Shown here in pieces: positions 15,073 through 58,900 of a stretch of 64,000 nucleotides of DNA. The stretch's first letter is position 1; each line of letters starts with the position of its first letter. The DNA lies in NCBI GenBank assembly GCA_964106915.2, contig OZ066917.1. The stretch is one strand, 5' to 3'. Below the pieces are notes generated by a model. That model was not told the origin of the DNA. It did no database searches and was given only the letters and a program-made list of their open reading frames with translations. Origin of the DNA: Podarcis gaigeae (lineage: Eukaryota). The position numbers and the translations under genes are program-made.

Positions 15073-15112
15073 ATGGAACTCCGGCTGGTGACACTGCTGT
15101 TTTTTCAAGCAG
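15073..15112 (+). CDS. PLA2G10-like signal-peptide exon
   Basis: aaATGG context; MELRLVTLLFFQA then G|gtaagt; phase 1 joins the exon at 17744 in frame. Confidence 0.8.
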
Positions 15113-18100
15113 GTAAGTACAAAATAGATGCCAAGCAATGTAGATGCTGACCTCATAAAAACACCTGTGCTTTTGTGCCCCCCTTAGTGCAGAGGTTTCA
15201 TTACTGGGCTTTACAACATTCTTATTGACCAAAGCAAACAGCTTTTGGGCAGGTGAGTAAGCTTATCTTTTTCATATTGTCATCATCGCCCTGGAACTGG
15301 GCTTTCGGTGTCTGATCTTAATGATAACTGTGCTTTGTTTGAACATGTAAATAGTGCAGGCGAAACATGTTCCAATGTGTTTACAAGTCTGAAAGTTCAT
15401 AAGTTCAAAAGTTTACAAAGTACTGTATGATAAAACTCCTTCAAATGGGTGGACTTATTTCAGTGCAGTGGGATTTGCACCAGGACATTGTTCAGGCTGT
15501 TATTAGACACTGAAAAATGCTCCAGTGGAATTAGGTCAATAGAATGGCTTGGTCTTAGGTGCTTTGGCATATTGCCAGGTGTCTTTCTCATATCTGAATG
15601 ATTGTCTTTGTTCATGCTGTAACTATCTGTTTGCCTCTTCCCTGTACTTTAAACAGCGAAATGTGAATAGCTAGTTTTTATTCATCTAAAGTCCAGGGTG
15701 GATGGGAGGAAGGAAATAAAGCTATTTTTATAAGGCCCCGCTACAGAAGCAGCACACAGCAGAACCGAAGCATGTGAGACCGTTATTGCAAGGCCTTTTA
15801 CTGTAATTATTTGAGGACACCTATATTACTGGAGCTTAATGCCTGCCAGTGTAAACTTCATCGTGCCAGGAAAGTTGAGATCATAAGATCCCATCCCAAC
15901 TGCCAGGCACATTTTTGTAACTATTTTGCTATTTATCAGGTAGAGTTACAAGAAACTGGGCCTGCTGGGCACAAAAGGATACTCAGCTTGGAATTTAACT
16001 ACTTTGTAACAGGAAAGAGTGAGAATTGCATTAAGTTGCATGCTCTTTCCCTTCCTGTCAGCTCTTTCAATACTGAGAACTGAAGTTTGCAATTTGTGTA
16101 CTTTAATACTTTGTCAATCACCTTGAACGTTTATGCTGTTCTTATAGTACAATAATTTTCAGCAAGGAATTCATATATACTCCTTACTTAGATACATACA
16201 GATTGGGAGGCTTTTCTCATTTTTTAAAAAGTCTGTTAACTGCAATGTTTTATTTGTAACTAATATGTTTAGGGTGGACTCTCTGTGCCTTTAAAACCTG
16301 AATCACCTCACTGTTATGGCACAGACATTGCTGCTGTTTGTTTGTTTTTCCTTATTAAGACAGAGCTCCTGCTTACATGTTTATTAAAATTAGACTTGAA
16401 TACTGTGAAGTAGAGAAGGAATGCTACATTTTTTCAGAATGCATACTTGATAGCCAAGGTATCAAAAAACAACAGCCGGTCTGTATTAAGACAGTAGTCT
16501 TCAGTTTGAGGTTTTGTTTTTTTGGCTTGGCAGTTGTTAAATGTCCCTGTTAAATCATCCTGAAGTAGACGATGAGGTACACTGCCATTTTCCTCAGGTT
16601 TATAGTGCAGAGACACTTGTGTTTCTGAAGCCTGTTTAAGTCTTGGATTCAGCAGAATGCTTTAACCAAAGTGCCTTTCGAGTCTAAACATTTAAAGCCT
16701 ATGCAATTTCCTTAGAATTGGCTATGATGAAACACATTTTCCATTTTGCAAGAACCAAATGTGTTTATATAATACAAATACATAGATTAAAGGAAAAACT
16801 CTAAACAACGTCAAAGAAGTTCTGTAGGAAAAAATGATGCTGATCCTGATAACATTTAGACATATCTGATCCAGAATTCTGTGTGTGCATATGTAGTGTG
16901 CCCTAATACAGGCACCCGCATTCCACTTGTGCGTGACTACATTTGTGCAGGTTGCTGCAAAATAAAAAAATATATTGGCCTTCCCTTGCACTGGGCAGTG
17001 GCCCCAATCGAGGGGAGGCTTGGGGCAGGCTGGGCAACGGCCCCAGGCAACTTCCAAGCAGCAGTCCCAGCGGTGCTTGTGAGTCTTGTTAAGTTGTGGG
17101 TGAACATATCAGACGACACAGCGATTCTTTCAAAGCAGCTCTTTTATTATTTGTAAGCTGGAACAGAACTGAACTGAAGAGCTCAGTCAGCCTGCTTATA
17201 TAGTGCTCCAGAACCTCGTTACTGTAACAACTTTCTAAAACTATCTAATCACTGAACGTCACTTTCGATCCTTCATTTGCATACAAACTATCCAATCACT
17301 GAACGTCACTTTCGATCCTTCATTTGCATAACTATCTACATTATCCCCCTGCTGGCCCAGGGTGAGAACTTCAGTACATAACAAGTCTCTTTCTCGCTCT
17401 CTCCTCCCTATTAAAGTGGATTGCTCCCCACGTTATGCAAGTTCACTTATATGCGCAGGGGCCCAGAACGTACTCCCCACATTAGTGGGGGGACGACACC
17501 TGTACATTTAAGTGAAGGGAGCTAACCTGGAATGTCGTTCTCAACTGAAATGAATGGGAATGCAAGGCAGACCCTTGGTTGCAGAAATGATATGTGTAGA
17601 GTTGTATTACTCTTTGTGAGCAGAAGTGCATTTTAAAGATATTATCAATAATACATACATTAATTCAGAACTGGGAAAGTGTAAAGATTTTGAGTAATGG
17701 TTTTTTACTCAGATGCACTAAAGTTTTACTTCTGCCTTTGCAGTTTGGAATAGCGTTCTTGGGAAGAACCATTCTGTACACAAAAGAGGCCTTCTTGAGT
17801 TATCTGGAGCCATAAAGTGTGGCACAAGACGATTTCCTTTGGCATATTTAGGTTATGGGTGCTACTGTGGCCCAGGAGGAAGAGGATGGCCTAAGGACAA
17901 AACAGACTGGTAAGGACATCAGTGACATCCCCAAGTGTCATTCTTCAATTGAATTCATCCAACCTTATTTAAGACCCTTGAAATGAAATGCAGGTTTAAT
18001 TTGTGGAAGAGAAACTGTAGGAAACTATATTGTGGTTACAGATGGGGCAGAAATTTGATCCTGTTCACATTTAAAGGTGAACCTACCAAATTCACATATT

Positions 18101-19746
18101 CCAAAACAATACAAGAACCAAAACACAGCTATCCTTCAAAATTCACACTGCTCTGAAATTTGCAGTGCCTTTCTCCAGTCAAGTAATGTGTGCAAAAAAA
18201 TCATGTGCTGGGGTAAAGCATCCATAAAATGCATATGGTAGTGAAAAATAACATAAAAAATGAAATTATTTTAGGGGAAATTGCTTCACGTAAATGTGTA
18301 TATTATGCAAACTTACATAGAAACATGTACATTAAGAGGGGGGAAATGCACTAAAATGATGATGAGTTTTCTTGAGGACTTCAAAAATTGGGGGAAATGT
18401 GCAGAACAGAACTTGAGATTTGAAAATGAGAAACCAAATTTGACAGATTTGCCCATCCCTAATTGTGGTAGCACAAACTGGTGCCAAAATCACATAGTGC
18501 TGGTGAGTGAGTAGTGAGAATAATAGGTAACATGATCAGCACATAACAAAACCTGCCCTTTATTATGCCAGATGACATTACCATGTTGCTAAGTTGAGAG
18601 AATGCAATGAGAGAAAAGGAATGCTGTGTGTCCTCTTTTAACTTGATTTGGAACCAGTGGACTTTCACTAGAGATAAATTTGATTTCTTTTTTAACCCTT
18701 GCTTCACTGAAAGAAGTGGTAGGTGTAATATTTGCATGCACCATGCTCTTGCTGTTTGTTTACCAAATGAATGATTCCAGAGGGATAAATACTTAATGTA
18801 AAAATTTAATGGGCTTTCCCTGAAACACTAGAAGTACGTGAAACAATATTGTAGAGTGCCTGTCTAGCTGAAGAATTTACTTCTGTATTGGCACATGCCT
18901 CTTTTTAAATCTTGGGTGGGCCTCAGAGAAATGCTCACAAAATATACCGTAATGGGTACAATTCAATCTCTATTGCTTAAAGGTGCTGTCATGAACATGA
19001 CTGCTGTTATGGCTTCGCAGAGGAACAAGGCTGTAACCCCATAATACGTAGATATAAATGGACCTGTAATGACAATACTGTGGTATGTGGTAAGGTAACA
19101 ATTTAAATTTCATTGTACTTATCCATTTTATCTTGATAAGCAATGCATGATCTAGTGTTAGGGTCTACTCAGAGTAGACTTAAATCCACTGATTTCAATT
19201 CCATAGTTTAACCACACAGAGTGTGAAGAAGTACTTCCTTATCTCTTACCTCATAAACTTATCTCTATCCACACCATATCTCTATACACGGATTCCACCC
19301 CATGCATAATTTTGTACACCACTATCATGTCACATACTCTCTCTTTTCTAGACCAAAAAGCCCCAAATGCCTCTCCCCATATGAACAACCCAGATCCTTC
19401 AATCATCATCTGAGGACCTTCTTCATGTGCCTCCTACACAAGAGGTCTGGAGTGTGGCAACACAAGAATGGGCCTTTTCTGTGGTGGCTCCCTGTTTGTG
19501 GAATGCTCTCCCCAGCGAGGCTTACCTGGCGCCTTCATTACATATCTTTAGGCACCAGGCAAAAACGTTTCTCTATAACCAGGCCTTTGGTTGATTAACA
19601 TTCTGTGGCTTTTTAAATGTGTTTGTGTGGGGTGGTGGTGGTTATTGGTTTGTTTTTGTTTTATTATCTATTTTGTGTTCTCATTTTGTATTTTTCTGTT
19701 GTGAACTGCCCTGGGATCTTTGGATGGACAGTATACGAATTTAATC

Positions 19747-19792
<46 letters not shown>

Positions 19793-20208
19793 CTGTCCAT
19801 TGTGAAAACTGTCCCTATCTGCTACCTGTTATTGTAACTGCTTTCAGAAATCTGAGCCTAAAATTTAAGAATGACTTACTTATTTTGATTTATAGTTATA
19901 TTTCCTTCCTGGTCTATCACGATTCCCAAAGCAGCTGCAATGAATAACAAATGAATAACAAATAGACATTAACCATTTGTGGCTAGTTGTTCCAGTTTGG
20001 TGCTGTTATTCCATTTCAACTATTCACCTGGTTTTTCTCTTTTTCAGATACAATGTTAGACAGATGTCAAAAAATCATATGCCAATGTGACAGAGAAGCA
20101 GCCAAGTGTTGGAGATCTGCCCCTTTTAACCGACGCTATGCCTTCTGGCCAAATTTTCTGTGCGGCCATATTTACCCTGTATGCAGTTATGGGAAATGTA
20201 GGCATTAA
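15073..20208 (+). CDS. Group X-like secreted phospholipase A2 (PLA2G10-like), spliced CDS: 15073-15112, 17744-17909, 18983-19089, 20048-20208 (474 nt, 157 aa)
   Basis: [157 protein letters not shown]. Has a signal peptide, dibasic propeptide, Ca loop YCGxGG, catalytic HD and the group X 16-Cys pattern. Confidence 0.93.
17087..17383 (-). mobile_element. Solo LTR (297 bp) with 5-bp TSD AGTCT
   Basis: TGTTA...TAACA termini; AGTCT at 17082-17086 and 17384-17388; minus-strand TATATAA near 17196-17202 and AATAAA near 17143-17148; 47-bp tandem duplication in the U3-like part. Confidence 0.85.
17744..17909 (+). CDS. PLA2G10-like exon 2 (propeptide, N-terminal helix, Ca loop)
   Basis: tttgcag| ... 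GACTG|gtaagg; ...[14 protein letters not shown]...[19 protein letters not shown]. Confidence 0.95.
18038..18461. mobile_element. Old non-autonomous DNA transposon (hAT-like, ...GCCCATCCCTA end)
   Basis: Homologous to 53985-54320. Confidence 0.55.
18983..19089 (+). CDS. PLA2G10-like exon 3 (catalytic His-Asp)
   Basis: ttaaag|G ... TGTG|gtaagg; [35 protein letters not shown]. Confidence 0.95.
19409..19790 (+). mobile_element. L2-type LINE 3' fragment with (AAT)n tail
   Basis: Encodes an AFSVVAPCLWNALP-like L2 ORF2 C-terminus; (AAT)n at 19747-19790. Confidence 0.7.
20048..20208 (+). CDS. PLA2G10-like last coding exon
   Basis: ttttcag|AT; [22 protein letters not shown]...[16 protein letters not shown], then TAA; ATTAAA at 20333 and AATAAA at 21043. 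Confidence 0.95.
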
Positions 20209-22062
20209 GACTACTTTTTAATGGAAACCTTCAGTTTCGTTCCACTTTAAGCTCTCTGTATTTTGTATATCATTCAACTAGACTAGCAGCTTCTGAACTG
20301 TGTATGTATCTTCAGATTTCTGGAAATGACAGATTAAACTATGACCTCTACACCTATTGGTTGCACAGATTCATAGGCTTCTTGTTATATCTTGTCATGG
20401 AAAACGTACCCTACAAAAGTGTTTTTGCAATGCCATGCTATGATCTTTTAAAGAGGTGGTGCATACAGTAAGTCTGCATAACTACAGTGCACGTGCCCAA
20501 ACCATCCTGGACCTCCACAGGTTCTTTGTGGTTGGTGATGCTGGGTTCCTATAAAGTGACAGTCCTATGGAACAGGAAGTGTAAGAGAGATACTCTAAGT
20601 GCAGAAAGGCACCATAAGATCCCTGAATACAGCAGAGAGCTTTTTACTGATAGAGAACAGGAGGTTCAGCCATCTTGGCCACACACTGGCTTATTGTGTC
20701 TGGAGAAGATATAATGCTCAGTGCAACCACCCCCTTTAAATGCTTTAATATAGTTTTCTTCTTTTATTTAGTAGTGAGGATGCTATTGTAAAAGGGTTGT
20801 GTGTGTTTTTTGGAAAAGGATGCTTATCTTATGACTAAACTGTAGTCACAATTTGAGGCATATATTCTAAAAGGATGGTAAAGCATTTTTATTATACTAT
20901 TTTTAGGTAGGCTATAGAAAACACTCAAACAACTGACATTTTTGCTTACATTCAGAAAACTATATAGTCGGTGGCACATCTGGCAATTACTTTAACCATG
21001 CTGTCCAAGTTATGCTGTGGAGGAAGAAAAAAAGATTAAGTAAATAAACAATGAAGTAGAGGATATGACACAATATAATGCAAGTAGTCATTTTACAACC
21101 CATTTTTCACAATATACATTTGAAGCACGTTCAGAACACATTTTTCCTATCAAAGAATTCTGGGCACTGCCAAGGAAGCTGTGTTTCAAATGTACTTTAA
21201 AGGTATAATATGTACGCAGCCTTGTATGATCACAAAGTTAATATAGTAATGTGCTTGAGCTGTGCAAGCACTTCTGATTATTTGGCTCCACTGTAGGTTG
21301 GCCAAACCCTTGCCACAAATATAACATACAAGAGCAGCACAAAATTCATGTTAATCATGTTAATATAGAATCATTTCTTGTGTTTCCATTGGCCTTGTTC
21401 AGCTCTGCACCTTGAAGGGACCTTTTATGGTTGTTTTATTGGTCCTAAAAGAATTAGAATGGAGACAGCTGCAGCAACTCAATAACATCCAGATGAATTT
21501 AAACATGTGGCAAGCTTTTTAATCTGACTGTTCTGTGCTACACTTAGTTTCTTAGACAGAGAATCATGCAATAAGTCCTTGAAGTCAGAGCCATTGTAGC
21601 AGGCTTTGTGCTGCTACCAGCTCTAACACCATCTCAAGGACTATAATCTCAAAAGCTTTCACTCAGATTACAAACACCTATTGGTTTCACTGTAGCTACC
21701 TTCCAAGTAAGTATTTTTAGGACTGCTGTCTTAATCTTCTCAGTGCAATTCAGCTTCTTCCTTGTGTATTTGTTCAATCTGCTTCAAGAACCTTGCTGTG
21801 CCTGTTTACAGAACATTCAAACTATTTCCTCTTTAAGCGGGCTTTTTGTTTTTGTGGTGTATGTGTGTGTATGTAGACACACACAGAGAGAGAGACAATT
21901 TGGCAAAACAACCCCAAATGCTTTGAAGATCGCTGAGCATACAGATATATACAGATAGCAATTGAAGTGAACTGTTTATTTAATAAGAAAGCATAGTACT
22001 GTATGTCTACACATAGACAATATCAGAGAGATGCGACTGCAGGTTTCCTCCATCAGCTCTTC

Positions 22063-22091
22063 TCAAAGCCCAGCCTCACTGCTACCTTTAC
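22063..22091 (-). CDS. Probable terminal coding exon of the VJ-Ig gene (GKGSSEAGL*)
   Basis: Acceptor tttctattggcag, in frame, AATAAA about 80 nt after the stop. An alternative acceptor at 22203 would give GDS*. Confidence 0.5.
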
Positions 22092-23086
22092 CTGCCAATA
22101 GAAATTCCACGAGGCTATAGTAAATGCAGGGACAGGACTGGAGGCCTCCATCACTGGCTCTGCTGAGAGACCAATTCCATCAGGCTCCCCCTTCAGCTAT
22201 CACCTATAAGCAGTTACTCCATCCAGCCACTATGGTGCCCACAAGTTGTTGGGCTCCCAATGGTTGAAGTCCAGCAAAATCTGGAAGGTCAGCTACCTTG
22301 TATAGCAACCTTGAAGCTATCTATCACCAGCTATCTTGAAGGTAAGAAATTGTGCTGCAGCCTCTCTGTTGAGAGACTAGCTCCATTTGCTGAAATTTCC
22401 TCTTCTACACCATACTTAAAGCTGTCCCCCCCTTTTTTTTTGCAACTGGTTAGCCTTTCAGAAAATGAAGTGCAGAGATTTGCTTGGATCGTTGGATATA
22501 TCAGCACTGGCGATCTCTCTTAGATCTCTTTAAGTTCTTATTCAGTATAAAGCTTGTTTTTCTGAAAGCATTTGGCAACAAATATGCATTGCATCTATAA
22601 TTCTGGCAAACAACTGAGCATTTTGCTGTCACCATACCTTGGTTTGACGTTGCTTTAGCACATGGAAGGCACTTCCTCAGCTGAGGAGTTAAAACTACTA
22701 TTAGAACTAACATGCCTCCAATGCCAGCTGCCACCACGCCAATGATTGTTCCAATGGATTCTTCTATGCCAAACAATCCTGGGGGGAAATACACAGAGGC
22801 ATCAGAAATCAATTGTCTTGAATATAGGGAATTGTAAGGAAAACTCAACGCACACTGGCTGGAAGAGGCTGCACTGAGAGACTGAGGGGGCGGATTTGGA
22901 TCTATATTTGCTAAACCTGTGAGAGGAACAACGAGAGACACTCTTGTGGTGTAACGTTCTGCATTACAGACTAGACTATTTTACGTCCAAAATGACAAAA
23001 ATATCTCCCTAGGAAAACTGAGGACATTCACAGCCTAGGGGCCTTTTTAAAATAGAGTGAGAAAGCCTAACAAATATATATATATA

Positions 23087-23122
<36 letters not shown>

Positions 23123-26100
23123 CAAGAACCAATTGTGTGAATTGGAACACAGTTTGAAGAGAGTGTGACTGAGGTGGGTTGGTAGATTATGAGTAACTCC
23201 ACCACTATTTAACATTCATATTGTGCTAATATTAAGCCCTGTTTCTATACAAATAATGTAGAATGTAAGCTGTCCCCATTCCAGGGACTTTACAATCTAC
23301 ATTAAACTGACAAAACAAGCATAGGACATTTATTCCTGTTAAGAATTTATAAATATTAGGCCTGTGACATTTCTCTGGCAGCAAACTCTGCCATACAGAA
23401 GATCTCCAGCCTGGCTCTGGCCTTATGGTCTGTGCCTTCCCATGTTTTCCTAGCAAGGTAACACAAGTACTACCAAGGTTTGTACTGGGAGTGGAGGTGA
23501 GTGGGTTGGAATTGCCATTTAAGTATCACCCCTGCCCCCCCAGCCAAAAGAGGAAACAAATCAACACAAAGAACAAAAGAAGGCAGACCTGCATTAGATG
23601 GTCATGTGTTAGTGTTTATATATATATATGCAAATTTATAAACAAGTGCTATAACTGTAACTGCATTTAGATGTTCTTAGAATGTTTTAATCTGTTTAAT
23701 CTGTTTTAGAAAGTTCCTGTTTTGCTTTTTTTAAAAAAAATGTATATCTGTTTGCCGCCCTTGGCTATAAATTCAATAAATAAATAATTTGAATAGAAAT
23801 ACAATGCAGGAGATTGCTGTGGGAAATTGCAATCAAACATAACTATGCAAAAGTGTCATTTAGTACTTGAGTTAAGGTTGTAGAGCTGTGCTCCTGGACT
23901 CAGCTAGGTCATGCCCACTTTCCTCTGACTCCTTTTCCTCACTCTCTCTTCCATGTGAACTCACCACAAGAGGAGCTCACACCATGCACTTGATAGCTTT
24001 TCTGTATTTTGTAACACAAGATATTTCTACTTGTGTTCTTCTTGCTGCTGCATGGAATAACACATGAATCTGACCATTGTTGGAGTTTTGTAAGTAAAGT
24101 ATTTTAAAACTTATTTAACAATGTGGCCTGTTCATTGCAAGAGGGGTAGAAATGAGGAGCACTGTATGCAACTAAATGAGATATGAAAAGAGTTTAATAG
24201 CCTATATCCCATGCTATATTGCTGCTTGACTTTTGTGAGTTTAAACTCTGCTGCTGCAAAGTGTGTTAAGGCCTGGATTTTGTATTTAGGAACCCAGCTG
24301 ATCCTTTTACTAATTACCCTCATGTGGGTCAGTGATCTACTTTCCACTGACATAATTATGACCACATGACCTGTGTGCTTGCTCATCCATTGTCTACGTG
24401 CGAACTGTTTATGGGCAGCCTCAAGGCTCCTGCTTAACCTTTGTATAGATTTTGTTACAGATAGGTAGCCGTGTTGGTCTGCCGTAGTCAAAACAAAAAA
24501 AATCCTTCCAGTAGCACCTTAAAGACCAACTAAGTTAGTTCTTGGTATGAGCTTTCGTGTGCATGCACACTTCTTCAGTTGTCATCTTTAAACTGGTGTT
24601 AGACCAGACAAATTAAGAAAGCACTTGAAAGAGGAGAGAGAAGTAGATGATTACAGAAAGGGTGGTGGTTCTAGATAGAAATTGCATCCCAAAAGATAAG
24701 GAAGTACCAGAAAGGGGTACTAGGGGTACATACAAATGGAGAAAAGGTGGAGAGCTTAAAAAGTCAGGCTTATCAGCTTGAGGCAAAAAGTGTCATTGAG
24801 TCACGGCAAAGGCTTATGACATCTCTAAAGGTAGATGCTGAAATATTCTGCAAGAGCAACTCTCTGAACAGTGAGGTACCGGTATATAAAATGTATAGAA
24901 CTTGTGCAGAGCACCTGATTTAGTCATTCGGCTCCCTTTCCCAATGACGATGCTCAGAATATGTGACCGAAGAGTCTCAGTACTTTCACCAAGCTATTCC
25001 CAGGATTCATTGCTGGTAAAGGTAAAGGTAAAGGGACCCCTGACCATTAGGTCCAGTCATGACCGACTCTGGGGTTGCAGCGCTTATCTCGCGTTATTGG
25101 CCGAGGGAGCCGGCATACAGCTTCCGGGTCATGTGGCCAGCATCACTAAGCCACTTCTGGCGAACAAGAGCAGCACATGGAAACGCCGTTTACCTTCCCA
25201 CCAGAGCGCTACCTATTTATCTACTTGCACTTTGATGTGCTTTCGAACTGCTAGGTTGGCAGGAGCAGGGACCGAACAATGGGAGCTCACCCCGTCATTG
25301 GGATTCGAACCACCAGCCTTCTGATCGGCAAGTCCTAGACTCTGTGGTTTAACCCACATCGCCACCCGCATCCCCTCATTGGTGGTGAAAGTAGTATAAA
25401 ACCACTATTAGGTCTAGTTTGGGTGTTGATGAACAGGTTGATATAATCACAACACTGGGGGGTGGGGAGAATTGAGCGTGAGGTACTTTTTAATCTTTAA
25501 TTGCTGCCATTCATTTGAAGTAAGGAATGTCGTTGCAAAGAGTTCCACTTCTGAAAAGCTGCCACTTCATAACGATTGCATATTCTCATTACCACCTGTC
25601 AAATGAAGTGAGATGGATGAAATTAATCAGGCTGTGACTATATTACAATGGCACCTTGATCATATTTTCAGAAAGCTTGGAAGAGAAATTCTAGGAAGAA
25701 ATAACAAAAGTTCCTTTGCTGTTATTTCCCTAACATATTTTCTGCTGTGAAAGCAGTGCTTGAATTTCTGAAGAATGTGTGCGCCAGAGCTAGTTCACAC
25801 ATGTATGTATACTTCACTTAGGGACTGTGTCCTGTGGCAAAACTGAACCTGTCCATTGGCTGGGGTAACGTGGCACCAGTGGTGTGAAATGCCCTCTCTG
25901 CTGAAATATAAGAAGCTGTACCAGTGCTGGCATTTCTCTGGCTCCTGAAGTCGCATCTATTCAGGCAAACATTCTTCTGAATTGAACTTGGGATTTAATG
26001 GTTTTAATTTTAAAAATTGTTGTATTGCATATTTTAATCAGAGGCATTTTAATGTTACTGTGTATTTTAATTAGGGATTGGTTTTCACAGTTGTAAACTG

Positions 26101-29100
26101 TTTTGGCATATTAAGAGCACATAAACAAACAAAACATGTAAGTTGATAGAGTGGTACCTCGGGTTAAGTACTTAATTCGTTCCGGAGGTCCATTCTTAAC
26201 CTGAAACTGTTCTTAACCTGAAGCACCACTTTAGCTAATGGGGCCTCCCGCTGCCACTGCGCTGCCGGAGCACGATTTCTGTTCTCATCCTGAAGCAAAG
26301 TTCTTAACCCGAGGTACTATTTCTGGGTTAGCAGAGTCTGTAACCTGAAGCGTATGTAACCCGAGGTACCACTGTACTCAAATAATTAGAGACATCAGAA
26401 GCATGCCAGTGGTCATACATTAATCACACAATGATGTGCATATCAATGCATCTTACATGTATAAAACACTATTATGCCACTTTAACAATCATGGCTTCCC
26501 TGCAGTGAATCCTGGGAACTGTGGTTTGTTCAGAGTGCCAAGAGTGTTAAGAGACCCCTATTCCCTTCACAGAGCTGGAGTTGTCACAACAGGTTAACAA
26601 TCAATCCTTCTTCCCAGGGAACTCTGGGAGCTGTAGTTCTGTGAGGGGAACTCTCAGCACCCTTAACAAATGACATTTCTCAGAATTCTTTGGGAGAAGT
26701 TATAACTGTTTAAAGTGGCATAATAGTGCTTTTACTATATGGTGTGGATGTGGCCTTATATGCACATTATACCACAGACTTAAACTGGTTTCATCATCAT
26801 ATCATCTCCCTAGGTGTTTGGAGAATACAGTGGTACCTCAGGTTACATACGCTTCATGTTACATACGCTTCAGGTTACAGATTCTGCTAATCCAAAAATA
26901 GTACCTCAGGTTAAGAACTTTGCTTCAGGATGAGAACAGAAATCGTGCTCTGGCGACGCAGCAGCAGCAGAAGGCCCCATTAGTTAAAGTGGTGCTTCAG
27001 GTTAAGAACAGTTTCAGGTTAAGAACGGACCTCCAGAACGAATTAAGTACTTAACCCAAGGTACCACTGTAATGCTTTCGACAGGACTGAGCACCCTCAT
27101 CGAGCCACAGAGCTCCCAGGATTCTTTCTAGGAAGCCATGCAATATAAAACTAGAGTGTAGATATGCCCTATGGCTTGGCCATGCATCTGTCAATTTTTT
27201 TTTGATGAGCAGCATAACACAGCATGCTTTATTAGTTCATGACAGTAGAGGCTAGTCCATTAGGGTGAAGGGTGCACTGCCCCCTTTAAACTCAGTCAGC
27301 CGCCACTCAGTCTATTTTGTTTACTGCTGTTATTGAGGCTCCATCTGCACTATATAAGGCAGTATAATACCACTTTAAACAGCCATGGCTTCCCCCCAAA
27401 GAATCCTGAGAACTGTAGTTTGTTAAGAGTACAGACCCCCTTAGAAAGCTACGATTCTCAGAGCTCCCTGTGAAGAGTGATTCATTGTTAAACCTCCCTG
27501 ATAATAGTAGCTCTGTGGGGAACAGGGGTCTCCTAACAACTCTCAGCTCCCTCAACACTCCCCAGGAGTCTGGTGAGACTAGAGCATGGGTAGTCAAACT
27601 AAGGCCCAGGGGCCAGATCCGGCCCAATTGCCTTCTAAATCCGGCCTGTGGACAGTCCCGGAATTAGTATGTTTTTACATGAGTAGAATGTGTGCTTTTA
27701 TTTAAAATGCATCTCTGGGTAATTTGTGGGGCATAAGAATTCGTTCATCCCCCCCCCAAAAAATATAGTCTGGCCCCCCACAAGGTCTGAGGGACGGTGG
27801 ACTGGCCCCCTGTTGAAAACGTTTGCTGACCCCTGGACTAGAGGACAGTCTTGATTTTTTAAAGTGGTAGGATAGCGTATAGTGCAGATTGGGGCTCATT
27901 TAGAAAAGAAACAAACAAAACAAAACATTACCCAGCGCCCTGCGGATCCTGAGCTTTGTGCCACCTCCTGTCACCACATCTCCATTGGAAAGGGTCACCT
28001 GGCAGAAATAAGTGCCATGATCGCTGGTTGTCACATTTAAGATAGTCAAAGATGCATCGCCTTCAGATAAATCCCCTGTCAGGAATGCTCTGGTGTAGTT
28101 TGCCAATACAGTGATGTTGTTCTCCATTAGGTCCCTCGACCCTTTTTCATCCTCCTTGTACCATTTCACTGTTAGGTTATTCAAAGATGAGCCATGGGAA
28201 CTTTGGAACCGACATCCAAGGGTCACTGTTTCACCCTCTTTGGCTTTCTCTCTGCTTGGACTCTGGGACACAGATGGAGACACAAGACTCATTCCGTATG
28301 TGTGAAACACTGTCTTGGGGGAAGCGGCAGGTGAATGGGTTGAGACAGCTCTGTTCTCCTTGGCTGCATTTCCAACGCCAGCATAAACAGCTGCAAAAGA
28401 AGAGAGAAAGACGAATGTTCTTGGTGAGACTTACAGAAGGTAGCGATTATTTAGGGGATGTGCGGGGTTCTGTGCGTGGGCGAACTGGGTTGTGTTGGGT
28501 TTAAAGGACTGGAAGTTCTGGCTTCATAGCAGATTATAGAAAGGGAGAGAGAATAGGTAATAAATAAAAGGGTGGGTATGTACTGATTTACTTTGTGAGT
28601 CTGCTGGCAAGAGATGCATTTTCAGTTGTTTCAACCATAATTCTGGATACGGGTGGTATACATTTTTGTACTACTGCAGGGATTAGCATTAGTGCAAAAG
28701 GATTTCCCAACAATAGCTGTCAACTTTTCCCTTTTCTTGCGAGGAATCCTATTCGGAATAAGGGAATTTCTCTTTAAAAAAGGGAAACGTTGACAGATAT
28801 GTTCCCAACTCCCCCTCCTGCTCCCATGGGTGCCCTCCCATCTACTCTGGATGTTTAGAAGTCCCTCATTTCACTCCAAGATGCATTTTGATTGGCACAG
28901 GAATTGTAGAGTTGGAAGGGACCCCAAAGGTAAACAGCTATGAGGCCCTTCTAACACACACCAAATGCGTGGAGAGCTGGGCACATTGGCAGCTAGCCTA
29001 CATGGACCCACAATCCCAACATTCATTATTTCAAAGTTGGAGGTGGGGTTGTTTGAGAACTCCGCACCCCTTAACTCTGTTTCCACCCCTAACATGCATG

Positions 29101-29833
29101 AATTTTAAAAATGATAAATAAGCAGAACCAAACCATGTTGTCCGTGAAATAAGTGTTTATGCACCATAACGCCTTCATGTATGGAAACATATACATTACT
29201 GCATTTGACTAAAGCTTTTAAAAGATCACAGTTATCTAGCAGAGGGGCTCAACTGTTTACAAAATCCTTTGACCTGAAAGAGATCACTGACATCCAGCCA
29301 TCTTTGGTAGCCTGTGAAGCCAAGTGGAGAGAGAGTAACAGGTGCACTTCAAGAGAGGCTGGACCAAACAGTATAGAAAGGAAGAATAAAGACTCTGTAA
29401 ATACAACAAGGGTTTTTGCTATGGCAACTTGAGCCTGTGAGTCACTGTCATGTGTCTAGACCGACTATCTTAGCTTCATCATCCCACAGTTAAAAGGAAG
29501 ACCTATGCATAAGCATAATTAAACTGGTTCACTTTATTAAAAATGCCCTTAGAATGATCATTTGAACTATCCTTATAATTTCATTCCCTACTTTATTTTC
29601 ACAACAATTTTACGTGGTACATCACAATTATCCTTATTTTGCAGATGGTGAACCGAGGCTAAGATATTATAAATTGGCAAAAGTCAACGTTTTTCTTGTT
29701 ATTGTTGTCCTGGTACCAGATATGCAGACAGTGCAGCAACATCAAAACACAGGGCTTATATATTTGCAGTTGCCAAGCCCTTCTATAGATTCTGGACTTT
29801 TATTTTGTAATTTAGTTCATAAAATGTATATAC

Positions 29834-29868
<35 letters not shown>

Positions 29869-32153
29869 GAAAAAGAATACAATGAGATTATCAGTAATTA
29901 AAAAACCCAGTTTTAGCCACATGACCCGGAAACTGTCTGTGGACAAACGCCGGCTCCCCTGGCCCATAAGCGAGATGAGCGCCGCAACCCCAGAGTCGGT
30001 CACAACCGGACCTAATGGTCAGGGGTACCTTTACCTTCACCTTTACTTAAGACATTTTAAAAAATTTAAATAAACAATAAGTGAAAACCTAGATTAAAAT
30101 GCATGACAACAAGCTACATATCTGGATAGACTTCCTTAAACAAAAATGCATTTAGTAGGTGCAGAACAGAGTACAGTGAAGGCACTTGCCCAATGTCAAT
30201 AGGCAAGGAGTTCCAAAGTTTGGGTGCTGCTACACTAAAAGACAGAGTCATCCCCCCCTCCCCAAATGTGGAATAAGTATTATGTAGCACTGGTAACTGC
30301 ACCAGTTCCATAGATCAAATTTATTTACAGTAATAAGATTTTTTTTTACTTACAGAATTGCCTTTCTGTTTCAATTTAGCACTGAAGATTGGGTTTCCCT
30401 TGCAGGAAGTGGCAGGGCAAATTGAGGTGTGGATAAGCACATGGCTTGGTGGGGATTCAAATCCTAATTTCCCAGGTCTTTGTCCGATACTCTAACCACT
30501 ACACCACACTGGCTCTTAATAGTACAACCAGCTTGATTCAAATATTAAACCTGAAGTGTGTGTGTTTCAAGCTTTGCTGGAAGCCAAAGATTCCCATCTT
30601 TGGTTCAATTACCAGCTCATTACCTAGGCTTCACTGTGAAGGTCGCCATGGAGGACTTGCTCTTAACATTGCAAAAGGTTATTAGTTCACTTGTATTTAT
30701 TTATATTGTCCTCCCGTAATACAAGCACACAGGAGTGTCCCTGTGTGCATCTGTGCAATGTTGGAAGGCAGGGTGTTGCTGGCATCCTGACATCTTTTTG
30801 TTTTCTAGATGGGAGTGTCATACACAGAATTTGGACAGTTCTTTGAAATCAATATGTGAAACCCAGCCCACCACCATCAGCATCATCACTTCATCTTCGC
30901 ACTTGCCTTAGGGATGGCTGTTGCTATGCTTTAGAGACAGTAGAAATCACAGCTGGCTGTAATTGTCCCTCCAGCTTCTAGTTGCAACAATCCTATCAGT
31001 CCTATTTCTCCCTCTTTTGCCTGCCCACTTATCCATGCCTATAGTTGCACAGCTTTTATTGCCTCCTGAGGTCACACACAAAGCTTTGGCCCGGTTGTAC
31101 ATTCCCCTTGGTTTCTGTTTCCTTCAACGCCATTGTGTCCTCAAGCCTCCATTTTTTTCATGCCACTGTTTACTTTATCCTACTTTCCAGCATTTACTAA
31201 ACCCAGGCATTTGACACCCTCAACCTATAACAGTATCAATATTCACTCCACTACAGATGCATTAGACACAAAGGAGCCTTATTCTCTTTGGACTTGGTCA
31301 CCCTAGGGTTGCATATCCAGGCAATAAACACATTACAATACTGTGTCCTCCTTAACTGATTTTGTGACAAATGTTTATGCATAACCTCGCAAGATCTCTT
31401 CAAATTGCAGGGTGAGGGAGGACACAGAAAAAGTGTATTTATAGCAGCTCTCTCATTAGGGTTTGCAGTCAGTACATCACAACAAGAAGAGACATAAAGT
31501 CCTAATGATACAAATCCTGAGGACAAATTTTCCCAGCTAAACCCCTTCTCTAAAACTCCCACATTCTGTCTTTAAGTAAAAAGGCAACATAATTATAGCT
31601 GCTTGTTGAGAAGCAGAAATGGGGGGGTTGACTTCAGATGTAAAAAGATTAGCACAGAAGCAACTTCTCTGCCTTTAGGATATATTTTTTAATGGAAAAC
31701 TGTGTGCCCCCCCTTTTGTTTAAAAATCACCTTATAAAACCAAATGTCATAAATTATAGAACCATAGACGTAACAGAATGTGAAAGACTAAAGACTGTCT
31801 ATCATAATTACAGATTCATATGCTTCAACCACCTTTTACAAAATAGCCTATAGACCAATAAGATACAGCCCAGATCACAACCTACTCAGACTGACTCTAT
31901 GGATGTTACTCAAAGCTATGTTCCATTGTGTTGAGTGGAGCTTACTTGCATCCAGACAAGTAAGAGTGCATAGGATTGCACCCTTGGTTTGCCACAAGCA
32001 ACTATAAGAAGAAACCACAGATCCCCTCTCCCTGCTCCAATCTCCTAAAAATGAAGGTACTGTAGTTCATTAGCTCAGTTACTTACCCAAACAGATAGAA
32101 ATCAGAAGACGGGGCACTGCCCAGCTGTAGGATTTCAAATTCTGCTTGATCAT
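22063..32153 (-). CDS. Orphan single-VJ-domain Ig-superfamily type I membrane protein (NCR3/NKp30-like). Exons 32153-32087, 28390-27932, 22778-22638, probable last exon 22091-22063 (about 231 aa)
   Basis: Leader MIKQNLKSYSWAVPRLLISICLAVYAGVGNA; V-set with C, W and DxGxYxC plus J-like TGGGTKLRI; TM IGTIIGVVAAGIGGMLVLIVVL. All introns are GT-AG, phase 1. Minus-strand AATAAA at 21975-21980. Confidence 0.85.
22638..22778 (-). CDS. VJ-Ig gene transmembrane/cytoplasmic exon
   Basis: tttccccccag|GA ... CAAG|gtatgg; 141 nt; GLFGIEESIGTIIGVVAAGIGGMLVLIVVLTPQLRKCLPCAKATSNQ. Confidence 0.88.
23074..23121. repeat. (TA)n(CA)n microsatellite
   Basis: Read directly from the sequence. Confidence 0.9.
24455..24578. 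mobile_element. Penelope-like element terminal fragment
   Basis: gtagccgtgttggtctg...gcaccttaaagaccaac...agctttcgtg...cacttcttcag resembles squamate Penelope ends (recalled). Confidence 0.55.
25018..25374 (-). mobile_element. Near full-length Sauria SINE
   Basis: Reverse complement of GGGATGCGGGTGGCG...(ACCTTT)n; imperfect TSD TCATTG(C/G)TGGT at 25007-25017 and 25376-25386. Confidence 0.92.
26149..26374. mobile_element. Tc1/mariner-type MITE, family A
   Basis: TIRs and TA flanks. Confidence 0.88.
26445..26756. mobile_element. Palindromic PIF/Harbinger-like MITE
   Basis: Long imperfect inverted arms (cactattatgccacttta / taaagtggcataatagtg); relatives near 8005, 27336 and 45270. Confidence 0.6.
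26828..27069. mobile_element. Tc1/mariner-type MITE, family A (opposite orientation)
   Basis: TIRs and TA TSD. Confidence 0.9.
27585..27835. mobile_element. hAT (Charlie-group) non-autonomous element with perfect 8-bp TSD GACTAGAG
   Basis: GACTAGAG at 27577-27584 and 27836-27843; termini CATGGGTAGTCAAAC / GTTTGCTGACCCCTG. Confidence 0.85.
27932..28390 (-). CDS. VJ-type Ig domain exon with N-terminal S/T/P-rich extension
   Basis: tcttcttttgcag|CT ... CTGG|gtaatg; 459 nt; ...PSVSQSPSREKAKEGETVTLGCRF...VKWYK...DASLTILNVTTSDHGTYFCQVTLSNGDVVTGGGTKLRIRRAL. Confidence 0.92.
29834..29866. repeat. (TGAT)n microsatellite
   Basis: Read directly from the sequence. Confidence 0.9.
29916..30046 (+). mobile_element. 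5'-truncated Sauria SINE
   Basis: gccacatgacccggaa...gagatgagcgccgcaaccccagagtcgg...ggtcaggggtacctttacctt. Confidence 0.85.
30060..30320 (-). mobile_element. L2-type LINE fragment
   Basis: Minus ORF contains FSVAAPKLWNSLP. Confidence 0.6.
32087..32153 (-). CDS. VJ-Ig gene leader exon
   Basis: ATG at 32153; MIKQNLKSYSWAVPRLLISICL then G|gtaagt; phase 1 completes a signal peptide with AVYAGVGNA. Confidence 0.75.
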
Positions 32154-36599: not shown

Positions 36600-36855
36600 C
36601 AGTGTAAACATCTCCACAGCACAGGGCAGGCTCGGCCAAAGCGTCAATGGTCGGACAAATCGCCTCCTTCGAAAGGAGCCGGCACTTCTCGTAGCCGTAG
36701 GCGAGAGAAACTCATTTTCCGCGCGCTCTCTGTGTATTTTGCTTAATGCTGCTGGCCCTTTAAATTGCTGGGGAGAGAGGCGTTGCAAGCAGCCCTATGG
36801 TGCTAATTTTTGAGACAACCCGCTTGCAGGTTGCATCTTCTTTCTTCTCTCCATG
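36600..36855 (+). promoter_or_regulatory. GRAMD1C: CpG-enriched GRAMD1C promoter/first exon ending in ATG|gtaagc
   Basis: Local CpG enrichment in non-repeat DNA; ccATG at 36853-36855 is followed directly by a strong donor; phase 0 matches the exon at 39576. Confidence 0.65.
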
Positions 36856-39800
36856 GTAAGCGTTGCGATCTTTGCCCGTTGACTTTGCACTTGTGCTTCT
36901 TCTGCTCCCCGACCCCATTTTGCAAAAGCAAAATTAAATACAGTAGGCTCTTCAGCCTATTAGTGGATGGCTGCGGACTTTGAGGTTTCAAATAGCGTCC
37001 CTGTATTCAGAGTCCTCTCCTGCCAGGTGCTTCTTTTTTGTTCTCTTGCAAGCTATCGGTAGTCGTTGCTGATAAAGTAGGTAGACGTTTGAGGTCTAAA
37101 AGTTTCCCCCTTTGAAGGGAAAATGTGCTGCTTGCTACTCCCCTTAACACCCAGCTATGGGTCACGGGTTTTTTTCTTTCCTGCCCAACATTTTTTTTCC
37201 TTGGCAGGAATTCTGTATCTTTAAGCAAAAGGGTTCAAATTTCCTGCCATGCAGATCCAGTAATAGGAAGAACTTCACTTGTTGAACTTCTGCCTGTCAC
37301 ACAGCTGTTAAATGGTGCTGGAGTCCTGGAGGGGAATAGAGGGAGGAACAATCCTAATATGCACATAAACCTGTTTTAAAATGCTAGTTCTTAAGACGTT
37401 TTGATCCTATAGACTGTGTAAGCTATGTGTGTTGTAAGCCAGCCTGTAAAGGAGGGCTAAAAAACTCCATACCTGATAGGGCTATGCCTTGCCCTTTATT
37501 TTTTGACCACCCGCACCCCCCTCAGCTCTGGAGTGTTCTGAGGATGCTTCCACAGAAAACATTTACAAATGAATTTAAAATGAAACCTTTCACTGCCGTT
37601 ATTAACTTTTGTAAACTTCGTTTACAAAAGAAGTTTAAAAATAAACATTTGTCGGCCGTTACCATGTGGTTGTCCTTTCGCAAATACTGTTGGAATTGTA
37701 TAGTGTTATAATGCTGGTGCATTAGAATACGTTTTTATACACAGTGGTACCTTGGTTCTCAAACTTAATGCGTTCTGGGAGTCCATTCAACTCCCAAAAC
37801 CATTCAAAAACCAAGACATGGCTTCCAATTGGCTGCAGGAGCTTCCTGCGCTCAAGCAGAAGCTGCGTCGGATGTTCAGTTTCCGAAAAACATTTGCAAA
37901 CCAGAACACTTACTTCCAGATTTGCGGCGTTCAGGAGCCAATTTGTTTGGCAACTAGGCCATTCGGGAACCAAGGTTTGACTGTATAATACATTAAGAAT
38001 CCTATTTAAGCTGGGTCAAAGCTGATTTTCTAAAGAGCACTGTTTCTCTTGTCCACCCTTGGGATCTTCATATACTGTACTTTCCCTTAAATATATTTGT
38101 TCCTACCAACTCCACTGTTTACTCATAGAATCACAGAGTTGGGTTTGAACCCACAAGCCTGAGATTGAGTCTCATGCTCAACTGACTGAGCTATCTTGGC
38201 AGTCTTTGGTCAAGAGTCTTGAGGCATGATGTGGACCAGCATACTTTACTTATATATTGGTCCTGTGGTGATAATCCTGTGTGTTCCTTTTCAGTGTCAA
38301 ATTTATTTTATGCTATTTACATATAAAGGGTATTGTACTGCAGTTTTCATTTTTAAAGAAACACTGAATTATGGCTTAGTAGTTCCCTATATTTTTTCCT
38401 CTCTAGCACATGCAAGAAAATTAAAAAAACAGGCATGGGGTGTGTGACCTGCTTCACACCCTCCTCAAGTGTTTCTGTGTGGTTAGAATACGCCCTTGAC
38501 TTTTGATAATGCTTTTTGTTCATTTGGATGGAGGACAGAGGGATATGAGTGCATGTGCAAACCAAACTACTGCACAAAAATAAAAGCAACATTTGTTGCT
38601 CCGCCCACTTTTGTTTCTGGCCCCACCCACCACTTGCTTAGAAGGGAATGTGGCCATTGGGCTGAAAAGCTTCACTGTTCCAGAGAATTAAACTCCCAGA
38701 CTCCGAAGCTAAATATTCTCAAAATGGCGGATATTGATGTTAGATGGTTAGCTTTGCTGGTTTTTAAGAAGAACTTAAAACCTTCTGTGGTCAGCTGAGT
38801 GATCCTGCTCTGCAGTAGCAAAGTGAGAAAGCACATACCTTCAGAGAATGGGGGAGGCAAACGCCCCACATAAAAAGTTAACAAAATAAAGGTAGTATTT
38901 CTTAATGCTGTGCTGATTATAGTCTGATCTACACAGGCTGTAGAACGGGCTAAAGTTTGTATCACTTCAGACTGTAGGTACGGAATCATTTTTAAAAATA
39001 CACACACAAGCAAATCTCCGCTTGCGGGAAGGAAATTACTGAACCATCTTGTTTGTTTTCTCCTTGTAAGTAGTTAAGACACAGAGCATTCACCCAGGGC
39101 ACCACCACCCCACCTGTAGTCTGAAGTGGTACAATCCTCTCAAACACCTTTAGGATTCTGCAGCATGTGTCGGCAAAGGGGAAATGCAGTGGATGTCCAG
39201 GGCTGTCTTACAGCAACACTATGAGCAGCATTTACAGTTGACAATGAACATGCTGTCTGGAATGGAAAGAGAGGATGGGTAAAAATAAATTTCCCTCCAG
39301 ATATATCATATAGGAGTTTGAGTGCTGGTTGAATTAGTGGAACCTTAACTGAAGACGTGAAGCCCATGTGCAACAAATGAAAGGCATAATGTGCATGCAA
39401 TGAACTAATCAAGGGGTAAAAGACTTTGAAATGCTATAACCTAATTAGACCAAAGTAGATTGGAAATGTTCCTTCCTTGTTCCTCATGGCTTATCCACAG
39501 CATTAGAGGTTTAGCTAGAAATGCTGTATTTTACTCCAGTTTATTAAGCTGCACACTTTTATTCCTTGTTCACAGGCACTTCAAGAAGTGGATCATGGCC
39601 TTATCAGTCAGCTGTTGGTGGACTCGGAGGAAAACCTTAGTGTGTGTACAGAGAAAATTCAAGCCTCCCCTCCATACAACTGGAATGCTGACTGGAGCTT
39701 TTGGGTAATTCCATGGGTTCTCTGTTATGTATGAGTGATCTGTATTCCAAGACAACCTGCATTCTATAACAGTTTGAATAAGCCAATCCCTTCTTTCAGC

Positions 39801-58863: not shown

Positions 58864-58900
<37 letters not shown>

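Follow-up and report, generated by a model that had tools for sequence, protein, structure and literature searches.

In the search for relatives of the pre-RAG antigen-receptor gene, intact one-exon VJ genes are actively looked for (PMC12227049). Joined-VJ proteins listed to date include CD79, NITR, SIRP, CD8, NKp30, and PRARP (PMC11599192), while UrIg, UrIg2, NCR3, and PRARP are encoded in the major histocompatibility complex (MHC) or in antigen-receptor regions (PMC12227049, PMC10751288), and the catalogue of ancient single-V genes that mammals have lost is still growing (PMC11599192). We analyzed a stretch of 64,000 nucleotides (nt) of the lizard Podarcis gaigeae (assembly GCA_964106915.2, contig OZ066917.1), which is called “the window” and to which all positions without a contig handle refer. 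It contains a gene for a secreted phospholipase A2 (sPLA2) similar to PLA2G10 and, converging on it, an immunoglobulin (Ig) gene with a joined VJ domain. The two genes are intact, of different age, and linked across lizards, snakes, turtles, and birds, and we regard it as rather probable that they are long-time neighbours and not a working unit. The object worth keeping is the VJ gene, which has no name, is present as a single copy with its VJ domain in one exon, is strongly conserved, and can be traced to cartilaginous fish. The phospholipase gene is a paralogue of PLA2G10 in sauropsids that annotations already include.

Both middle genes were translated exon by exon between GT-AG borders, open frames were searched with Pfam, and spliced contigs of related lizards were compared (four runs from four studies, chosen for the presence of the V exon; their RNA nature is presumed). 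The order and strands CLDND1(+), sPLA2(+), VJ-Ig(−), GRAMD1C(+), proposed from the letters in a preliminary description, were confirmed. The two middle genes are real; both are intact and undergo splicing, with GT-AG borders at all introns. Their ends had been placed 1–2 kb apart, which is too far. The contigs end at 20350 (PLA2) and 20918 (VJ), each near a poly(A) hexamer, so that the 3′-ends are about 0.55 kb apart without a sign of overlap; about 0.8 kb separate the stop codons. The earlier value was larger because the fourth VJ exon, with five coding bases, had been overlooked.

The VJ gene lies on the minus strand and has four exons (coding positions 32153–32087, 28390–27932, 22778–22638, and 21014–21010), which encode 223 amino acids. 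Exon 1 (32087–32153) encodes the signal peptide, and the contigs extend to at least 32300. Exon 2 (27932–28390; Pfam V-set, 61 bits) encodes a Ser/Thr-rich spacer and the entire V domain, with four N-glycosylation sequons and a G strand that bears the GxG motif. The V domain through the G strand is therefore contained in a single germline exon of 459 bases, which is spliced directly to the leader and helix exons. Exon 3 (22638–22778, seen in the contigs) encodes a conserved stalk, an uncharged Gly/Ala-rich transmembrane helix, and a short tail with a cysteine. A longer version of it, with the upstream acceptor 22916, was rejected, as no contig uses it. Exon 4 (20918–21014) contains the last residue, the stop codon (21012–21010), and the 3′-untranslated region (UTR); its joint to exon 3 (22638–21014) was found in three of the four contig sets, and a poly(A) hexamer (20893–20888) lies just past the contig end. 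The joint of exons 2 and 3 is present in all four sets, that of exons 1 and 2 (single record) in two. Intron 2, viewed within the stretch 24300–30300, is packed with repeats of the short and long interspersed element types, which attract nearly all reads mapped there, and it contains an inverted repeat pair at about 26150–26376 and 26825–27071.

The predicted model of the protein contains an antigen-receptor-like V domain, with a mean predicted local distance difference test value of 66 overall and about 80 in the domain. Among the fold matches, V domains of Ig and T cell receptors rank highest, with Z scores of about 15 and root-mean-square deviations of 2.1–2.9 over about 110 residues. The stalk-helix-tail exon alone had no match in solved structures. 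A prediction of a V-domain homodimer scored 0.18 (mark 0.32), which bears neither way.

To estimate the age of the VJ gene, we considered a V-domain search with 167 matches among 183 candidates, 120 of which were listed. All 107 listed matches with a species name are from squamates, turtles, crocodilians, or birds, with identities of 63–93%. From a profile search against 1.84 billion representatives, 150 rows were listed, 34 of them with a single domain; 17 of these 34 were looked up, and 13 could be named. Among the matches listed, the named orthologues are from Callorhinchus, Mustelus, Polypterus/Erpetoichthys, Scleropages, Umbra, Aldrovandia, Protopterus, Latimeria, and five sauropsids. The 13 named entries include no mammal and no amphibian, and no higher teleost is named among the listed rows, though basal teleosts, lungfish, and coelacanth have the gene; the absences in amphibians and higher teleosts are possibly independent losses. 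Six VJ gene numbers do not occur in a table of frog genes that are absent in placentals (Table S1 of PMC10416458), which fits a missing frog orthologue but is no proof of it. Reciprocally, the bichir protein matches the window V and helix exons best in this genome (81 and 42 bits), with the next match at 27 bits. No paralogue of the window V exon above 37 bits was found in the genome, i.e. the gene is single copy. At C17:55,017,103 and C17:73,355,061 are two more V domains that are each contained in one exon and end in a J-like strand; they share 32–34% identity with the window V exon.

The V-domain identities to the window are 66–68% for five birds, 73% for turtle and alligator, 54% for coelacanth, 45–46% for bichirs, and 41% for two cartilaginous fish. 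For comparison, the PLA2 identities of the same five birds are lower (58–62%). The stalk and transmembrane part is near-invariant among orthologues. We inspected 121 stored records with the stalk motif, including isoforms and closely related species. None has a charged transmembrane residue, all have the early tail cysteine, and 120 have GxG before the stalk. A Tyr motif is present in three records, in each case in an extended predicted tail; it is present in no normal tail. A possible furin site (RxxR) follows the V domain in 109 of the 121 records, overlaps the last strand, and is missing in sharks; it is a weak lead.

The PLA2G10-like gene lies on the plus strand and also has four exons (coding positions 15073–15112, 17744–17909, 18983–19089, and 20048–20208), which encode 157 amino acids, with a Pfam PLA2 match on three of them. 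Exon 1 (15073–15112) encodes the signal peptide and is spliced to exon 2 in two of the four contig sets. Exon 2 (17744–17909) encodes the propeptide with its dibasic end, the mature N-terminus, and the calcium loop, and exon 3 (18983–19089) the catalytic His-Asp and Tyr; both are covered by Pfam and the contigs. Exon 4 (20048–20350, the contig end) encodes the second catalytic Asp and the C-terminal extension and contains the stop codon (20206–20208) and the 3′-UTR, with a poly(A) hexamer at 20333. The joints of exons 2–3 and 3–4 were found in three and two of the four sets, respectively. The group X catalytic residues (His-Asp, Tyr, and second Asp) and the calcium loop are all retained, and the dibasic propeptide end and the C-terminal extension are of the group X type. 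From these residues, the window enzyme is predicted to act as a group X-like calcium-dependent phospholipase; the product would be secreted, activated at the dibasic site, and would release fatty acids and lysophospholipids from outer membranes. The net charge of 25 window-type records has a median of about +1 and ranges from −3 to +6. As it is moderate and varying, there is no antibacterial signature like that of group IIA, and a cationic antibacterial specialisation as a feature of the clade was rejected.

A search of the genome for the family PF00068 gave 19 matches, including a second group X-type gene on contig C26. The outer exons of this gene are 93% and 100% identical to a named PLA2G10 record, it has the same exon borders as the window gene, and it lies tail-to-tail with a RING exon, which we take to be BFAR, presumably as in the human gene order. 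RRN3 and a CAF1-family match (CAF1/PARN type) are on the same contig. As the C26 gene holds the position and the clade of PLA2G10, the window gene is a paralogue, as the preliminary description had supposed. The possibility that it is the lizard’s only, translocated PLA2G10 was rejected, because C26 carries a second, orthologous gene beside the BFAR-type exon. A retrocopy origin was also rejected, because the introns match those of the C26 gene.

Human group X is the best match among solved structures for both lizard types, scoring 176 bits with the PLA2G10 type and 145 bits with the window type; for the latter (queried with the Pogona orthologue), group IIE reached 106 bits. In a tree of 74 proteins, the window-type clade comprises squamates, turtles, and birds (support 100/94), and the clade of PLA2G10 proper comprises squamates, tuatara, turtles, and birds (100/97), i.e. 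squamates, turtles, and birds carry both; the proteins were hand-picked from 132 listed rows, the deep branches are not resolved, and the bootstrap had not settled. In a 36-row tree rooted on ray-finned fish, both sauropsid clades fall within the lobe-finned group (98), and the sisterhood of the two clades is neither rejected nor demonstrated (p value of 0.227 in the approximately unbiased test). Both trees are composed of non-mammalian sequences. The PLA2 copy would have originated by a DNA-level duplication after the split from ray-finned fish and before squamates parted from turtles and birds. Many genomes already carry window-type genes under the label “phospholipase A2-like”. A chicken PLA2G10L is differentially expressed in the hen oviduct, with no locus given (PMC8082553); the literature searched yielded no other paper naming PLA2G10L. 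The existence of a second group X PLA2 implies that studies of “PLA2G10” in birds or reptiles must specify the copy.

Three further sPLA2-like loci were observed in the genome. A one-exon frame at C1:84,523,333–84,523,611 covers most of the domain, with the calcium loop and the His-Asp intact. Two divergent loci at C17:19.56 Mb and C16:11.2 Mb fall in none of the group I, II, or X clusters (otoconin type or similar).

We then compared the linkage of the two middle genes across species. They are on same-sized contigs in all 22 comparable species (5 squamates, 9 birds, and 8 turtles; counted by eye), after exclusion of five birds with differing or ambiguous assemblies and of species lacking a contig size on one side. 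For 17 of the 22, the contigs are larger than 50 Mb and the evidence is weak; the other five scaffolds are 0.37, 0.59, 5.1, 9.7, and 14 Mb. In eight species, the gene identifiers differ by 1 to 15 (those of Terrapene are consecutive), and in four others they are far apart. The matches listed include no crocodilian PLA2 of the window clade, and crocodilians have the VJ gene. The comparison of gene neighbourhoods that had been suggested gave no case of unlinked genes among these sauropsids. In contrast, the chromosome with the VJ gene differs in size from that carrying the single listed group X PLA2 in three of three bony-fish outgroups (Latimeria, Polypterus, and Erpetoichthys).

The window is part of a larger block on contig C8 with the order BOC, CFAP44, ILDR1, GPR15, CLDND1, PLA2, VJ, GRAMD1C, ZDHHC23, CCDC191, QTRT2, DRD3, and ZBTB20. 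The block was read from long frames and family matches in 400 kb of flank, and the genes without a family match are presumptively named from sequence resemblance. CPOX, which adjoins GPR15 in human, is at C8:74,291,945–74,296,530, 0.9 Mb from GPR15/CLDND1 and beyond BOC. The block agrees with the turkey, in which CCDC191, ZDHHC23, GRAMD1C, CLDND1, GPR15, ILDR1, CFAP44, and BOC lie within 220 kb (PMC8470100). The distance between the turkey gene LOC100551192 and a marker within CLDND1 is 6 kb (PMC8912253); this gene number stands in an sPLA2 row of Table S1 of PMC10416458, and GPR15 stays beside CLDND1 (PMC8892231). The conservation of the whole block in turkey indicates that the pair is no better conserved than its unrelated neighbours.

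The corresponding mouse interval of 0.8 Mb and 11 genes includes Boc, Wdr52 (Cfap44), Spice1, Sidt1, Naa50, Atp6v1a, Gramd1c, and Zdhhc23 (PMC3651197). In this genome, the SIDT1 and ATP6V1A matches are near the start of C30 (957,000–1,046,000) and not beside GRAMD1C; a second ATP6V1A-type match is at C29:16,942,634. Hence, sauropsids and placentals share the outer flanks but not the middle segment, so that the rearrangement breakpoint that had been postulated at this site is real relative to placental mammals. In these, the segment ILDR1-GPR15-CLDND1-PLA2-VJ would have left the CFAP44–GRAMD1C interval, with the named genes moved and both middle genes probably lost, or the PLA2 never present. 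The VJ gene is probably missing in placental mammals.

A likely account of these results is that a PLA2G10 copy landed beside an ancient resident VJ gene in a chromosome block that stayed intact. The preliminary description had instead proposed that PLA2, VJ, and GRAMD1C form a co-regulated innate-immune/lipid module, which selection would have kept together. The constant linkage, the near-consecutive identifiers in eight species, and the short distance between the 3′-ends are compatible with this proposal, as is the joint appearance of the two genes, i.e. spliced pieces of both in three of the four contig sets and of neither in four raw-read runs. However, the two genes are of very different age and unlinked in all three fish outgroups, and CFAP44, BOC, ZDHHC23, and CCDC191, which are unrelated, are equally conserved in turkey (PMC8470100); a conserved whole block and unlinked genes in fish do not support a co-regulated module. 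Furthermore, their convergent orientation precludes a shared promoter, the PLA2 is not consistently cationic, the Ig protein lacks signalling features, and the chicken PLA2G10L was reported as an oviduct gene (PMC8082553). We thus consider a module unlikely, and the idea adds little unless co-regulation is demonstrated.

Several points weigh against long-time neighbourhood of two genes of different age. The 3′-spacing and the linkage in 22 of 22 species would also be expected under functional constraint. The presence of both genes in three contig sets does not contradict shared expression; the contig depths differ between the genes in both directions and allow no ranking of expression, and the four raw-read runs (related species, 6–12% of each read) gave neither exon cover nor listed joints for either gene. 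One of the PLA2 matches that are not listed (547 of 667) could be another group X copy adjoining the fish VJ gene. Either order of the block, the sauropsid or the placental one, may be ancestral, and absence in mammals is not shown by the matches listed (120 of 167 for VJ and 120 of 667 for PLA2). In Table S1 of PMC10416458, the turkey sPLA2 is grouped with platypus, frog, coelacanth, and chimaera genes; should this grouping hold, the PLA2 copy predates the duplication time that we propose and survives in monotremes. The row criterion is loose (one of the three best homologues and one witness within 5 Mb), and the unrelated one-exon frame on C1 could be the true match of the frog gene in that row (pla2g1bl), so that we regard the row as an open lead against our dating. 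Lastly, the function of the VJ protein is deduced from its anatomy.

As far as this anatomy can be interpreted, the VJ protein would be a surface glycoprotein that is incapable of signalling alone, by either the usual adaptor or the tyrosine routes. Its slow evolution suggests an unchanging self partner, most likely an adhesion molecule, a ligand, or an accessory subunit, with which it may pair via the conserved stalk and the Gly-rich helix, while acylation of the tail may provide anchoring. In our judgment, the chances are about even that the VJ gene represents an undescribed family of non-rearranging one-exon VJ genes throughout jawed vertebrates, which is single copy, lies outside the MHC and the antigen-receptor regions, evolves more slowly than the neighbouring enzyme, has a fixed partner suggested by the stalk and helix conservation between sharks and birds, and was deleted at the mammalian CFAP44–GRAMD1C rearrangement. 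Other affiliations were considered. The names given to orthologues in databases are of no help: “uncharacterized”, HAVR2, kappa V, SYG1, IGSF6, MPZL3, SCN3B-like, and NCR3-like are mutually conflicting (at least seven automatic names) and carry no weight.

One alternative regards the gene, which stands beside GRAMD1C, as the ohnologue that is missing from the myelin P0/MPZL/SCN-beta family, and its product as an adhesion or channel-accessory protein. The topology is alike (one V domain, one helix, and a short tail), the Atlas look-alikes are MPZL1, P0, and CD83 (0.94–0.96), and the VJ family profile matches sodium-channel beta-2 over the V domain and the helix with 57 bits. The location would also fit, as SCN1B stands beside GRAMD1A and SCN3B beside GRAMD1B. 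Yet antibody and other V domains score equally or higher, and the VJ G strand is of the J type. The V domain of MPZ/MPZL is split over two exons. The same is true for the sodium-channel beta1 and beta2 genes, with a second exon of 167 bases (PMC1971062), whereas that of the VJ gene is unsplit in its one 459-base exon, and this origin is therefore quite improbable.

Similarly improbable is that placental TIGIT is the displaced and much-changed VJ orthologue, which would have gained an inhibitory tail. Placental TIGIT is located between DRD3 and ZBTB20, and a profile and motif scan of this interval in the lizard (C8:75,410,000–75,452,000) revealed no Ig V exon. Both genes have leader, V, transmembrane, and tail exons, VJ orthologues commonly have a Pro-x-Gly turn in their FG loop that resembles the key loop of nectins and TIGIT, and a nectin-3-type V exon is 5 Mb away on C8. 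On the other hand, the normal VJ tail lacks a Tyr motif, while the TIGIT tail has Ig tail tyrosine and immunoreceptor tyrosine-based inhibitory motifs; the aromatic key residue of the nectin family is a leucine or tryptophan in VJ; and an abrupt change would be required of a protein that evolved so slowly between sharks and birds.

NKp30 couples to adaptors via a transmembrane arginine. That the VJ gene encodes such an NKp30/NCR3-like activating receptor of killer cells, as its designation as an NCR3 paralogue had implied, is very improbable despite the one-exon VJ domain with GxG and the automatic name “NCR3-like” of crocodilian records, given that none of the 121 records has a charged transmembrane residue, that the gene is single copy and slowly evolving, that the genes around it over 460 kb range from BOC to ZBTB20 while NCR3 is MHC-linked (PMC12227049), and that the same protein is also automatically named HAVR2, kappa V, SYG1, IGSF6, MPZL3, or SCN3B. 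NKp30, TIGIT, CD28, and CTLA4 are not among the 60 listed sequence matches or the 50 listed fold matches; these lists are filled with antibodies and thus do not exclude them.

Both flanking genes are on the plus strand. The left one, with a coding span of 255–2857 and Claudin_2/PMP22 matches on its first and last coding frames, we take to be CLDND1 from sequence resemblance and the adjacent GPR15; 12 kb separate its end from the PLA2 start. The coding exons of GRAMD1C recognised in the window lie at 53410–61575, the earliest at about 53410 and the GRAM-domain exon (Pfam) at 58711–58926. The gene continues past 64000, with its VASt exon at C8:75,289,608, 20 kb outside the window. A CpG-richer stretch at 36600–36860, which ends in an ATG and an immediate splice donor, is a candidate first exon of GRAMD1C; it is head to head with the VJ gene, about 4 kb from its 5′-end. 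The span of about 37 kb that had been given for the four genes holds only if this ATG with its donor at 36854 is indeed the first exon.

The window PLA2 resembles PLA2G10 and chicken PLA2G10L in the dibasic propeptide end, the calcium loop, the catalytic residues, the 16 core cysteines, and the intron positions. It differs by one additional cysteine near the C-terminus (17 in total, compared with 16 in 24 of 25 records of its clade), and the position on the BFAR/PARN side and the PLA2G10 clade belong to the C26 gene.

The VJ gene is more difficult to place. The literature searched contains no description of it or of the PLA2-VJ pair, and no paper was found for five VJ database gene numbers; a mention in Ohta 2019, Flajnik 2012, or Fu 2019 is possible. 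The gene, which occurs in sharks and in all groups of sauropsids, carries conflicting automatic names. If the above view of the family is correct, it is a new entry among the few intact VJ genes available for reconstructing the gene that was split by the RAG transposon, one that humans lost and that is amenable to study in chicken.

Its closest described relatives in layout are the joined-VJ members of the Ig superfamily (NKp30/NCR3, CD8, CD79, SIRP, NITR, PRARP, UrIg, and the CD28 family), with which it shares the one-exon V domain with GxG, the antigen-receptor-like fold, and the presence in cartilaginous fish. Unlike these, it lacks a C1 domain, a charged residue in the helix, a Tyr motif, and a PPP/EIP loop, a Thr and not Phe/Trp precedes the GxG, and it lies among genes of the human 3q13 type, outside the MHC and antigen-receptor regions; it is not among the genes covered by PMC11599192 and PMC12227049. 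Of the marks of the CD28 family, the PPP/EIP motif in the FG loop, the cytoplasmic Tyr motif, and the published synteny markers are all absent from it. With MPZ/MPZL and SCN1B–4B, its nearest Atlas clusters, it has in common one V domain, a Gly-rich helix, and a short tail with a cysteine. PRARP and UrIg are of the VJ-C1 type, whereas the V exon of the window gene is spliced straight to the helix exon. The genes cd28hl1, cd28hl2, cd28hl3, and cd28x are similar in having a single V domain, a spread from shark to tetrapods, and an apparent loss in mammals (PMC11599192). In contrast to the window gene, which is present in all sauropsid groups, they have other synteny markers and motifs and, according to the same source, were not found in squamates.

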